This document shows positions 3,486 to 5,190 of a stretch of 11,055 nt of DNA, piece by piece. The notes under the pieces are model-generated. The model was not told the DNA's origin and searched no databases. It saw only the letters and a program-made list of their open reading frames with translations. Within the stretch, counting starts at the first letter, position 1, and each line of letters begins with the position of its first letter. Made by a program: the position numbers and the translations under genes. This DNA comes from a virus. The stretch is taken from UHGV virus genome UHGV-0100061, one strand, 5' to 3'.

Positions 3486-3618
3486 TTTTTGGGACTCCTG
3501 GCTGATTAAGTATGTCGATAAGGCGTTTCCATCCGTCACGTAATTTACGGGTGATTCGTTCAAGTAAAGATTCGGAAGGGCAGCCAGCAACAGGCCACCC
3601 TGCAATGGCATATTGCAT
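3454..3618 (-). CDS. cIII: cIII, inhibitor of FtsH-mediated cII degradation
   Basis: Manual translation from ATG 3618..3616: [54 protein letters not shown] (54 aa), stop at 3456..3454. SD AAGGAG upstream. In a different frame from the 96-aa track ORF 3321..3611. Confidence 0.85.
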   Translation of the reverse strand: MQYAIAGWPVAGCPSESLLERITRKLRDGWKRLIDILNQPGVPKNGSNTYGYPD

Positions 3619-3640
3619 GGTGTGCTCCTTATTTATACAT

Positions 3641-3690: not shown

Positions 3691-4059
3691 TCAGGCGGCT
3701 TTGATAGTCATATCATCTGGATCAAATATTCCTGATGTATCGATATCGGTAATTCTTATTCCTTCGCTACCATCCATTGGAGGCCATCCTTCCTGACCAT
3801 TTCCATCATTCCAGTCGAACTCACACACAACACCATATGCATTTAAGTCGCTTGAAATTGCTATAAGCAGAGCATGTTGCGCCAGCATGATTAATACAGC
3901 ATTTAATACAGAGCCGTGTTTATTGAGTCGGTATTCAGAGTCTGACCAGAAATTATTAATCTGGTGAAGTTTTTCCTCTGTCATTACGTCATGATCGATT
4001 TCAATTTCTATTGATGCTTTCCAGTCGTAATCAATGATGTATTTTTTGATGTTTGACAT
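3691..4059 (-). CDS. ea10: Ea10 (lambda early-left protein, ssb-like)
   Basis: 122-aa ORF MSNIKKYIIDYDWKASIEIEIDHDV...DPDDMTIKAA, recognised as lambda Ea10. Position downstream of cIII in the pL operon matches lambda. Confidence 0.8.
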   Translation of the reverse strand: MSNIKKYIIDYDWKASIEIEIDHDVMTEEKLHQINNFWSDSEYRLNKHGSVLNAVLIMLAQHALLIAISSDLNAYGVVCEFDWNDGNGQEGWPPMDGSEGIRITDIDTSGIFDPDDMTIKAA

Positions 4060-4077
4060 CTATTCATATCCTCATAG

Positions 4078-4105
4078 ATAAAAAATCGCCCTCACATTGG
4101 AGGGC
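4078..4105 (-). terminator. Rho-independent terminator upstream of ea10 (tL2-like)
   Basis: Plus 4088..4105 gccctc-acattg-gagggc (6-bp GC stem), preceded on the plus strand by gataaaaaat. Minus strand reads stem-loop followed by GATTTTTTATC. Confidence 0.55.
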
Positions 4106-4167
4106 AAAGAAGATTTCCAATAATCAGAACAAGTCGGCTCCTGTTTAGTTACGAGCGACATTGCTCA

Positions 4168-4195
4168 GTGTATTCACTCGTTGGAATGAATACAC
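4168..4195. repeat. Perfect 9-bp inverted repeat gtgtattca-N10-tgaatacac
   Basis: Seen directly: arms 4168..4176 and 4187..4195, 10-bp spacer. Lies in the non-coding gap between ea10 and sieB. Candidate protein-binding site or RNA hairpin. Confidence 0.4.
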
Positions 4196-4319
4196 AGTGC
4201 AGTGTTTATTAGTATGCCTGTCTTTTAACCACATCAGGCTCGGTGGTTCTCGTGTACCCCTACAGCGAGAAATCGGATAAACTCTATTCACCCCTACAGA
4301 GAGCAAAAGAGAAACGCCG

Positions 4320-4901
4320 ATGAACAACTCATGGTGGCAGGAACTAATGCATTTTTTCCTGCAAGGAATGACACTTAAACAGTTGATTCATATGCTAATC
4401 ATCCTAATCATATTGATTATTGTTATGCCTGTAAGCGTAAAAGAATGGATAAACCTGCATAATCCAGAAATCCTTCCTCATTACTGGATGTATTACATCC
4501 TGTTGTTTTGCGTTAGCTATGTGCTTAACGGCGTTGTTAATTCCGCTTATCACGCTGTGACTGAAAGAATTGAGATATTCGCTGCTCAGAAGCGCAAATC
4601 TAAAGAAGAGAAATACGTGCAAGATTTGTTTGATTCGTTAACTCTTGGAGAAAGAGCGTATTTGGCATTCGCTGTAGCCGCTAATAACCAGCTAAAGACA
4701 GAAAAGGGAAGCCCTGAAGCAATCTCATTGCTCGAAAAAGGGCTTCTTATTCGGGTACCTTCTGCTACTGGATATCCTGAAATCGACCGTTTTGTTATCC
4801 CGGAACGCTATAGAAATGAGTGCTACATTAGGTTTGCTGGGAAGAAAGACAGTCTTATGGATGAACTTATCGCTCAGGATAAGCATGGCAAAAACAAGTA
4901 A
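4320..4901 (+). CDS. sieB: SieB superinfection exclusion protein
   Basis: 193-aa ORF MNNSWWQELMHFFLQGMTLKQLIHMLIILIILIIVMPVSVKEWINLH..., recognised as lambda SieB, with an N-terminal transmembrane segment. Plus strand, converging on N as in lambda. Confidence 0.9.
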   Translation: MNNSWWQELMHFFLQGMTLKQLIHMLIILIILIIVMPVSVKEWINLHNPEILPHYWMYYILLFCVSYVLNGVVNSAYHAVTERIEIFAAQKRKSKEEKYVQDLFDSLTLGERAYLAFAVAANNQLKTEKGSPEAISLLEKGLLIRVPSATGYPEIDRFVIPERYRNECYIRFAGKKDSLMDELIAQDKHGKNK

Positions 4902-4917
4902 TTAGCAAATTAATTTA

Positions 4918-5190
4918 TCATCTCGCCGTCAGTTGTTTTGATTTCCGGTAGCCTGCCGCGTAAATGGCTACGTTTGGCAGGCAAATACTTCCACTGCATT
5001 CATCTGCCTTCTTGCAGCGAAGGCTTCCGAGTGATGCTGCTTTGTCTGCTCTGACGCAACCAGAGAGCTTTAGCGCAATTTTTCGCGCCAGTCGCTGTTC
5101 TTGCATTGCCTGCTCACGTTGAGCCTGTCTGCGTGCTCTGCGGCGATTTCTGGCGTTATCGTCAGCCAGATATGTAATGACTACTGCCAT
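4918..5190 (-). CDS. N: N-like transcription antitermination protein (arginine-rich motif)
   Basis: 90-aa ORF with N-terminal arginine-rich motif DNARNRRRARRQAQREQ and C-terminal AIYAAGYRKSKQLTAR resembling P22 gp24/N family. GGAGG SD 5 nt upstream of ATG 5190..5188. First gene downstream of pL/nutL. Confidence 0.8.
   Translation of the reverse strand: MAVVITYLADDNARNRRRARRQAQREQAMQEQRLARKIALKLSGCVRADKAASLGSLRCKKADECSGSICLPNVAIYAAGYRKSKQLTAR

Follow-up and report, generated by a model that had tools for sequence, protein, structure and literature searches.

The antisense RNA sas of phage P22, with its translational switch between sieB and esc, was reportedly described by Ranade and Poteete in 1993. 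This RNA switches translation from SieB to Esc, blocking the former and permitting the latter, and translation of Esc under sas protects the phage from its own exclusion system (PMC12197685, PMC13397905). A 127-nt sequence of sas is given in a small-RNA-seq paper of 2026 (PMC13397905, Table 2); there is also a 105-nt form. In phage lambda, the small RNA LPR1, renamed PreS, sits between ea10 and ral (Silverman et al., bioRxiv 10.1101/2024.10.31.621285). According to that preprint, PreS is about 88 nt long with a processed form of about 68 nt, is bound by Hfq, is found in the lytic cycle only, and has its 3' end at the terminator tL2a; it activates dnaN and represses alaS, its seed lying in an unpaired region, and by raising host DnaN it aids phage replication (bioRxiv 10.1101/2024.10.31.621285).

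We analyzed a stretch of 11,055 nucleotides (UHGV virus genome UHGV-0100061, hereafter the window) and, within it, the 260-bp gap at positions 4060-4319. The original prediction for this gap described an inverted repeat and a direct repeat upstream of sieB, considered either as control sites of the sieB promoter or as a small RNA. We consider it probable (roughly 0.7), on comparative grounds, that the gap consists of two phage small-RNA modules read leftward and a rightward sieB promoter, the repeats being parts of the RNA modules. The identities of the modules, PreS with tL2a and sas with the sieB promoter (PsieB), are well supported as orthologues of described elements. The elements are already known; the roles of the repeats and of a candidate pseudoknot are what we infer here.

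Results

The window represents the early-left region of a lambdoid prophage. On the left, the gap is bounded by ea10 (DUF2528; 3691..4059, minus strand; Pfam DUF2528, 8e-47; phrog_646), labeled ssb/Ea10 in the record of the Stx1 phage VT1-Sakai, and on the right by sieB (4320..4901, plus strand; Pfam SieB, 1e-25; phrog_1301, 6e-124), beyond which lies an N-like antiterminator (4918-5190, minus strand). VT1-Sakai and several "Lambda_ev" phages share at least 99% identity with the gap. The record of VT1-Sakai, which is near-identical, has pL, nutL and N reading leftward, with pL and nutL to the right of N; therefore, lytic transcription traverses the gap from right to left. An Rfam scan of the whole window with E up to 1 returned no family in 4060-4319, and the sole significant match was Lambda_thermo, the lambda cIII thermoregulator element, at the cIII start (3573-3631, minus strand; 88.5 bits, E = 5e-21).

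The gap had been described as non-coding and devoid of ral, and the alignments agree. No ral ORF was found between ea10 and sieB; about 336 bp containing ral and orf28 are missing compared to lambda and phage ev017, and the ORFs of the gap have no Pfam match. The alignment, the junction variants and their prevalence place a filler, AGTA, at 4211-4214 (no strand). The ral-less junction, TTATT(A/C)GTATGCCTGTC, is also present in VT1-Sakai, HK446, HK620 and over 30 viral contigs, and a junction-spanning 121-mer was found in 931 of 5,426 complete E. coli genomes (at least 80% coverage); this recurrence rules out an assembly artefact. Among the E. coli matches listed, the PGAP annotation has nothing under the 121-mer.

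Both repeats are present where they had been placed. The perfect 9-bp inverted repeat is GTGTATTCA (4168-4176) and TGAATACAC (4187-4195), and the 10-bp direct repeat ACCCCTACAG occupies 4256-4265 and 4290-4299; at a spacing of 34, the latter extends to 15 matches of 17 (4256-4272 versus 4290-4306). In 2000 dinucleotide shuffles of the 260 bp, a perfect inverted repeat of at least 9 bp with a loop of 3-12 had P = 0.008, and a direct repeat of at least 10 had P = 0.011-0.016. Both repeats are thus confirmed as real and non-random, each being rarer than chance.

The left part of the gap (4060-4210) aligns collinearly with the intergenic region between ral and ea10 in lambda (33905-34055) and contains an 88-nt homologue of PreS (LPR1) at 4079..4166 on the minus strand. 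Its ends were placed by the cloning and in-vitro-transcription primers that Table S5 of the preprint lists (5' end 4166, 3' end 4079; bioRxiv 10.1101/2024.10.31.621285); it should be noted that the 5' end is that of the cloning primers and of a northern band of about 88 nt in lambda, rather than a mapped 5' end. Identity to lambda LPR1 is 87/88 (98.9%), compared to the threshold of at least 92% that the preprint's authors apply, and the sequence lies on the pL strand, directly upstream of ea10, and ends at tL2a. The single difference is in the terminator loop, at 4097, and the fold is identical in both phages. Together with 4167, the base just 5' of the PreS +1, this is one of the few positions of 4060-4210 at which the prophage differs from lambda; VT1-Sakai shares both variants (T versus lambda C at 4097, A versus C at 4167). 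The seed region (4115..4131, minus strand), located by primers P838, P888, P970 and P971 and by the lambda seed deletion and M1/M2 sites, is identical to that of lambda, including the bases mutated in M1 and M2.

The terminator that had been described as tL2-like, at 4078-4105, is tL2a, by homology to the annotation of HK620, in which the homologous hairpin is named tL2A, and to the PreS preprint; a terminator scan also reports it. Its stem-loop (4086..4107, minus strand; stem read 4107-4086, then TTTTTTATCT) has 8 bp with five GC pairs and a loop of 6, followed by TTTTTT (U-tract 4079-4085), as in intrinsic terminators. By homology, the tL2a hairpin and its U-tract are the 3' end of PreS and its presumed Hfq-binding module. 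As in lambda, PreS lies immediately upstream of ea10 on the pL strand, and the seed, the 5' stem, the terminator hairpin and the U-tail are identical. In contrast to lambda, where ral lies upstream, a sas-type module is fused here about 20 nt upstream of a hairpin that flanks PreS, and the window differs at loop base 4097 and at 4167 just 5' of +1.

This flanking hairpin is formed by the inverted repeat. In the minus-strand RNA it has 12 continuous pairs and the loop CAAC (4168..4195), ends 2 nt 5' of the PreS +1, and folds with -15.4 kcal/mol (z = -5.0). The wobble U4186.G4177 pairs on the minus strand and would be a C.A mismatch on the opposite strand, and wobble pairs of the hairpin occur on the minus strand only. 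In relatives, the flanking hairpin was found in 204 of 205 PreS loci, as two unrelated stem sequences, with a window-type stem in 196, an unrelated stem in seven and one copy, in HK022, cut by IS903. The insertion in HK022 (locus L101, 501-640) lies in the middle of the 3' (plus-strand) arm and constitutes a natural mutant. The unrelated, mEp043-type stem, ATAGCAGA/TCTGCTAT, stands at the same position, keeps the apical ACTCG and folds with -13 kcal/mol (z = -3.4); therefore, it is the hairpin structure that is conserved. Homology between phages breaks 4-5 nt past the hairpin, into at least five different continuations, and in mEp043 it breaks exactly at the 5' end of PreS and resumes in the hairpin loop only. 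From these breakpoints and the stem replacement, we infer that the PreS module is bounded on its 5' side by the inverted repeat. The hairpin also occurs without a nearby sieB (HK97, mEp043), where it accompanies PreS although sieB or ral is replaced, so that the inverted repeat belongs with PreS and the proposal that it controls sieB fails.

In a sigma-70 scan of the minus strand near 4167-4210 and 4325-4400, no promoter of its own was found for PreS or sas; the sole minus-strand match (4435-4407) scores no better than chance and is wrongly placed. Since there is no promoter-like site in or upstream of the hairpin, and lambda PreS is reported as lytic-only, PreS appears to be cut from the pL transcript. 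Most likely, the hairpin positions the endonucleolytic cut that frees PreS and/or forms a cap at the 3' end of the fragment upstream. An RNase III site was considered and rejected: about two turns (about 20 bp) of double-stranded RNA are needed, and only 12 bp are conserved. Extended arms of 22 nt are lost where the flank diverges after CACAGTGC, and in mEp043, and a long duplex for RNase III is unsupported because these arms are not conserved in other phages. In the available portions of the PreS preprint, no discussion of the flanking hairpin was found (bioRxiv 10.1101/2024.10.31.621285).

The right part of the gap corresponds to P22. On the minus strand, 4214..4324 is a homologue of the P22 sas region, complementary to the start codon, the 5' UTR and the promoter of sieB. 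From 4324, it is identical to P22 sas at 107 of 110 positions (global alignment with PMC13397905, Table 2), and 4215-4324 is about 97% identical to the region upstream of sieB in P22; the region is thus both homologous to sas and complementary to the sieB initiation region. The homology stops right after a candidate pseudoknot, at the ral-deletion junction. Further similarities include the same promoter and start-site sequence, a sieB gene whose SieB protein is 85% identical to that of P22, and a conserved internal in-frame start of Esc (Met25, 4392-4394). The differences are that the ral-deletion junction here takes the place of the last ~17 nt of the 127-nt P22 species, and that this is a Stx1-type lambdoid phage of an E. 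coli host. Comparison with both equivalents thus gave a divided result, the left half of the gap matching lambda PreS and the right half the P22 sas/sieB upstream region; judging from the alignments, the PreS/tL2a and sas/PsieB modules have become neighbors because the ral cassette was lost or is absent. The suggestion of a small RNA was therefore correct, by homology, and incomplete: there are two RNAs, homologues of PreS/LPR1 and of sas, both on the leftward (pL) strand.

In the P22 record (NC_002371), the sieB promoter is annotated at 29690-29720, the start of sieB RNA at 29727 and the esc start at 29830; the promoter maps to 4253-4283 and the RNA start to 4290 of the window. The -10 hexamer, as placed by this annotation, is TAAACT (4278..4283, plus strand), and the homologous -10 in other cassettes of this kind is TAAAAT, TAATAT, TAATCT or TATAAT, the hexamer being functionally conserved. 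A scan for consensus sigma-70 promoters does not report PsieB, the -35 is poor (TACCCC), and the -10 and the start are taken from P22. The remark that sieB has no obvious Shine-Dalgarno (SD) sequence was fair, as there is just the purine-rich AAAGAGAAA 6-14 nt upstream of the ATG. The mapped "sieB RNA start site" of P22, 29727, is the A of tcACCCCTACAG, i.e., the first A of the second ACCCCTACAG at 4290, so copy 2 of the direct repeat (4290..4299, plus strand) is, by homology, the 5' end of sieB mRNA. From the alignments of sas and PsieB, it follows that both copies lie inside the sas homologue (as CUGUAGGGGU) and in the promoter and 5' UTR of sieB.

Copy 1 (4256-4265), at about -35, is the loop and one arm of a minus-strand hairpin, hairpin B (TTCTCG-TGTA-CCCC-TACA-G-CGAGAA; 4247..4271), which overlaps the -35 region of PsieB. 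Hairpin B folds with -9.9 kcal/mol (z = -2.5), and its stem covaries across families of cassettes. The whole sas-like segment folds no better than its shuffles (z = -0.6); the entire region was therefore rejected as a stable fold, and only sub-hairpins beat the shuffles. On the plus strand between the SieB and Esc starts (4337-4362), there is an adjacent inverted repeat, GCAGGAACTAATG/CATTTTTTCCTGC, with 13-nt arms that are 85% complementary and have no spacer; it could form a structure in the mRNA that bears on the SieB/Esc switch. A terminator-like hairpin on the sense strand inside sieB (4486-4510, plus strand) consists of GGATGTATTACATCC and then TGTTGTTTTG, and in the HK620 gene equivalent to sieB, tL1 is annotated within the 5' part, on the strand opposite.

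We compared this arrangement across about 100 unique cassettes obtained by a pattern scan of viral contigs; the cassette is present in E. coli, Salmonella, Klebsiella, Hafnia, Enterobacter and Edwardsiella phages. A protein-based search for distant sieB loci returned only relatives with at least 91% identity. The block TGCCTGyC-TTTT-nnCCAC-nTCAGGC-nn-GGTGG is common to E. coli, Salmonella, Klebsiella and Hafnia phages, upstream of unrelated rightward genes. Two cassettes lie outside the pL operon, in HK225 beside the holin gene (L227) and in the P2-like Salmonella phage SEN4 (L228), and both front a small gene that points against its neighbors.

The element shared by the ~100 unique cassettes lies in the window at 4216..4248 on the minus strand, at the 3' end of the sas homologue and just before the junction. 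It contains two interleaved complementarities, AACCAC/GUGGUU (S1, 4248-4243 with 4232-4227) and GCCUG/CAGGC (S2, 4239-4235 with 4220-4216), with AAAAGA as L3. A second sequence type (type II; S9-5, Edwardsiella Edno5, Enterobacter ENT1, HK225 and the P2-like SEN4) keeps both helices by compensatory changes, GCCGGG/CCCGGC together with CCACG/CGUGG, CCGCG/CGCG or CCAUG/CAUGG. In an alignment registered by hand with N padding, 80.9% of cells pair, compared to 24-40% in slid controls, although the search pattern fixed most type-I bases. In four pairs, both partners are changed, and the covariation score is higher than in any shuffle; the five type-II sequences may go back to one evolutionary event. 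The loop lengths (L1, 1-3 nt; L3, 6-8 nt and A-rich) permit an H-type pseudoknot on the minus strand only. We therefore regard the universal element, on moderate evidence, as a candidate H-type pseudoknot in the leftward RNA. RNAalifold on a MAFFT alignment of 40 cassettes recovered the GCCUG/CAGGC helix alone; the other stems were missed because hairpin B is misaligned across families, and stems were analyzed per sequence. H-type pseudoknots with an A-rich third loop include the preQ1-I riboswitch and structures that protect 3' ends. As modeled, the universal element would resemble such pseudoknots, with two helices (5-6 bp) that interleave, a short L1 (1-3 nt) and an L3 (6-8 nt) rich in A; it matches no curated Rfam family (E up to 1).

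Downstream of the universal element, two arrangements occur. In single-hairpin cassettes, the block runs directly into an extended -10 (TGgTATnCT) and then a hairpin, whose 5' arm is the -10 and whose 3' arm is the SD of the gene. Four Watson-Crick combinations are seen between the variable base of the -10 (TAT[N]CT) and the SD arm: TATCCTT/AAGGA, TATGCTGG/CCAGCA, TATTCTTGG/CCAAGAA and TATACTGG/CCAGTA. Because the rightward mRNA cannot include the -10, this covariation points to a leftward transcript. In loci such as L105, L112, L095 and L110, all of this arrangement, the extended -10 is complementary to the SD of the gene itself, and a read-through or antisense RNA of such loci would, judging by the pairing, contain a hairpin hiding the SD or the anti-SD. 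Two-copy cassettes, that of the window among them, retain the hairpin and have a separate -10 downstream of it, and the loop motif recurs at the transcription start.

A direct repeat of at least 8 nt with a spacing of 32-35 is present in 43 of 94 unique cassettes. These 43 comprise at least five motif classes, (A/T)CCCCTACAG, TCCCCAACAAC, TTCCACAGTCAA, CCCCAATGCAA and CCCCCACAA, with TTCCACAGACAA, TCCACAGTCAA and CCCCAACAG as further variants. Over the ~100 related cassettes with unrelated downstream genes, both copies change together (CCCCTACAG, CCCCAACAAC, TTCCACAGTCAA and others): the match between copies averages 10.5 nt within a cassette, compared to 5.6 nt between families. Some cassettes (L151, L167) have no copy 2. 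The motif class tracks neither the downstream gene nor the immunity type, which speaks for a constraint inside the locus and against a protein operator. For hairpin B and the mRNA 5' end, the predicted duplex has -23.3 kcal/mol, compared to -10.4 +/- 2.7 for shuffled hairpins; it should be noted that sas is already perfectly and contiguously complementary to the mRNA 5' UTR, and a second contact through the loop is not strictly needed. The minus strand folds more stably in 68 of 81 cassettes, which is weak evidence because the test is confounded by G-richness. Of 51 unique cassettes, 31 have their longest flanking ORF on the opposite strand on both sides (left 40/51, right 39/51), a count that is only suggestive.

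Discussion

All RNA ends in this prophage are transferred by homology, and the following scheme should be read accordingly. The gap would be a compact non-coding control region with both strands transcribed. After induction, the pL transcript would pass, in order, through N, the antisense of sieB, the gap and ea10. Within the gap it would meet the sas-type module first (from 4324 to 4214), which would offer a single-stranded stretch against the sieB start and SD, then hairpin B, and then the 3' pseudoknot. About 20 nt past this module would follow the 12-bp hairpin, and after it PreS, 88 nt long and ending at tL2a. The hairpin would mark or position the endonucleolytic cut that releases PreS and would give the upstream fragment a capped 3' end. 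By homology, sieB mRNA would be made in the lysogen from the weak sieB promoter, with TAAACT as -10 and the start at 4290.

Copy 2 would be the 5' end of this mRNA and copy 1 the loop and one arm of hairpin B. With copy 1 in the loop and copy 2 at the mRNA 5' end, the loop of the antisense hairpin B (CUGUAGGGGU) is complementary to the mRNA 5' end and may nucleate sense-antisense pairing in the manner of RNA-OUT and RNA-IN of IS10; the need for the loop to match the mRNA 5' end would explain the concerted change of both copies. In IS10, the loop of the antisense stem-loop RNA-OUT is complementary to the extreme 5' end of RNA-IN, and its stem covers the ribosome-binding site. Hairpin B of single-hairpin cassettes has a similar geometry, which is an analogy rather than membership: there is no sequence relationship and, unlike IS10, two-copy cassettes match the loop to the mRNA 5' end by a repeated motif rather than by complementarity in cis.

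The regulatory reading of the original prediction stands for the direct repeats, insofar as they lie in the sieB promoter region, and for the involvement of a small RNA, but not for the inverted repeat as a control site of sieB. If the repeats acted as DNA operators, they would be bound by a protein, of the phage or of the host, that regulates the sieB promoter. The copies are at about -35 and +1 of the promoter, 34 bp apart, and copy 1 is within the palindrome TGTA-CCCC-TACA, as one might expect of operators. However, one and the same motif class is found in front of unrelated genes and in phages that differ in immunity and N type (lambda, P22, HK620, VT1-Sakai), and different classes occur within one host species; this distribution argues against a dedicated phage regulator as well as against a single host factor. 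The inverted repeat, in turn, is ~95-120 bp upstream of the promoter, in the PreS module, and is found without sieB in HK97 and mEp043. We therefore regard protein operators as unlikely; in particular, the classes of the direct repeat shift in concert, independently of the gene and the immunity type that such sites would serve. Somewhat less improbable, but still doubtful, is a relic of tandem duplication of the start and 5'-UTR segment with promoter function only, the inverted repeat being a stabilizing 3' stem of the upstream mRNA. Single-hairpin cassettes resemble the unduplicated state, with the extended -10 TGgTATnCT after the universal element and the 3' arm as SD; in the window, the similarity of units 1 and 2 extends past the motif (GAGAAA..CGG..ATAAAC versus GAGAAA..CCG..ATGAAC), and copy 2 is missing from some cassettes. 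Repeated duplication of the start-site segment is a live alternative for the origin of the direct repeats, and repeated independent duplications could mimic concerted change. Such a history needs at least five independent duplications of the same geometry, or concerted change in repeats of 10 nt, a length too short for gene conversion; moreover, the divergence of copy 1 in L146 is compensated inside hairpin B (CTATA/TATAG), which shows selection on structure.

A small minus-strand protein would be encoded by the ORF 4148-4327 (60 aa from TTG, or 29 aa from an internal ATG at 4234). Residues 24-60 match phrog_31828, a family whose function is not known (E = 4e-12), and a hypothetical protein is annotated here in some records. 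PHROG families include gene-caller artefacts, and the ORF has a TTG start, no SD and no Pfam match. Its two halves are separate non-coding segments of lambda, which lie downstream of the ral stop and upstream of orf28, respectively, and it overlaps both the hairpin that flanks PreS and the pseudoknot. We consider a protein very improbable; because the ORF crosses the ral-deletion junction, it is probably an annotation or gene-caller artefact.

The two small-RNA modules with a rightward sieB promoter are thus our preferred reading of the gap. More tentatively, the right half may be an instance of a widespread, portable "lysogeny-only" cassette with a sas-like antisense shut-off, a generalization that we would put forward as possible rather than likely. 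In such a cassette, a gene expressed from the prophage (sieB, hkaP and many unrelated small genes) would be placed antisense within a lytic operon. The module in the lytic transcript would consist of an H-type pseudoknot and a hairpin with a loop matching the 5' end of the mRNA of the gene, so that lytic transcription would automatically produce a stable sas-like antisense RNA and turn the gene off. Concerted direct repeats would then be the signature of recognition between the loop and the mRNA 5' end.

Conclusions

A stretch that is blank to gene callers, and one in a Shiga-toxin-type prophage, yet contains homologues of two phage regulatory RNA regions. The PreS homologue is expected, by its similarity to lambda, to boost phage replication after induction, and the sas homologue is expected to protect the induced phage from its own abortive-infection protein, SieB. 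The comparative data suggest a concrete role for each of the repeats, and also that maturation of PreS depends on a conserved flanking hairpin. Antisense control in the style of P22 may be general for many prophage accessory and defence genes, rather than a curiosity of P22.
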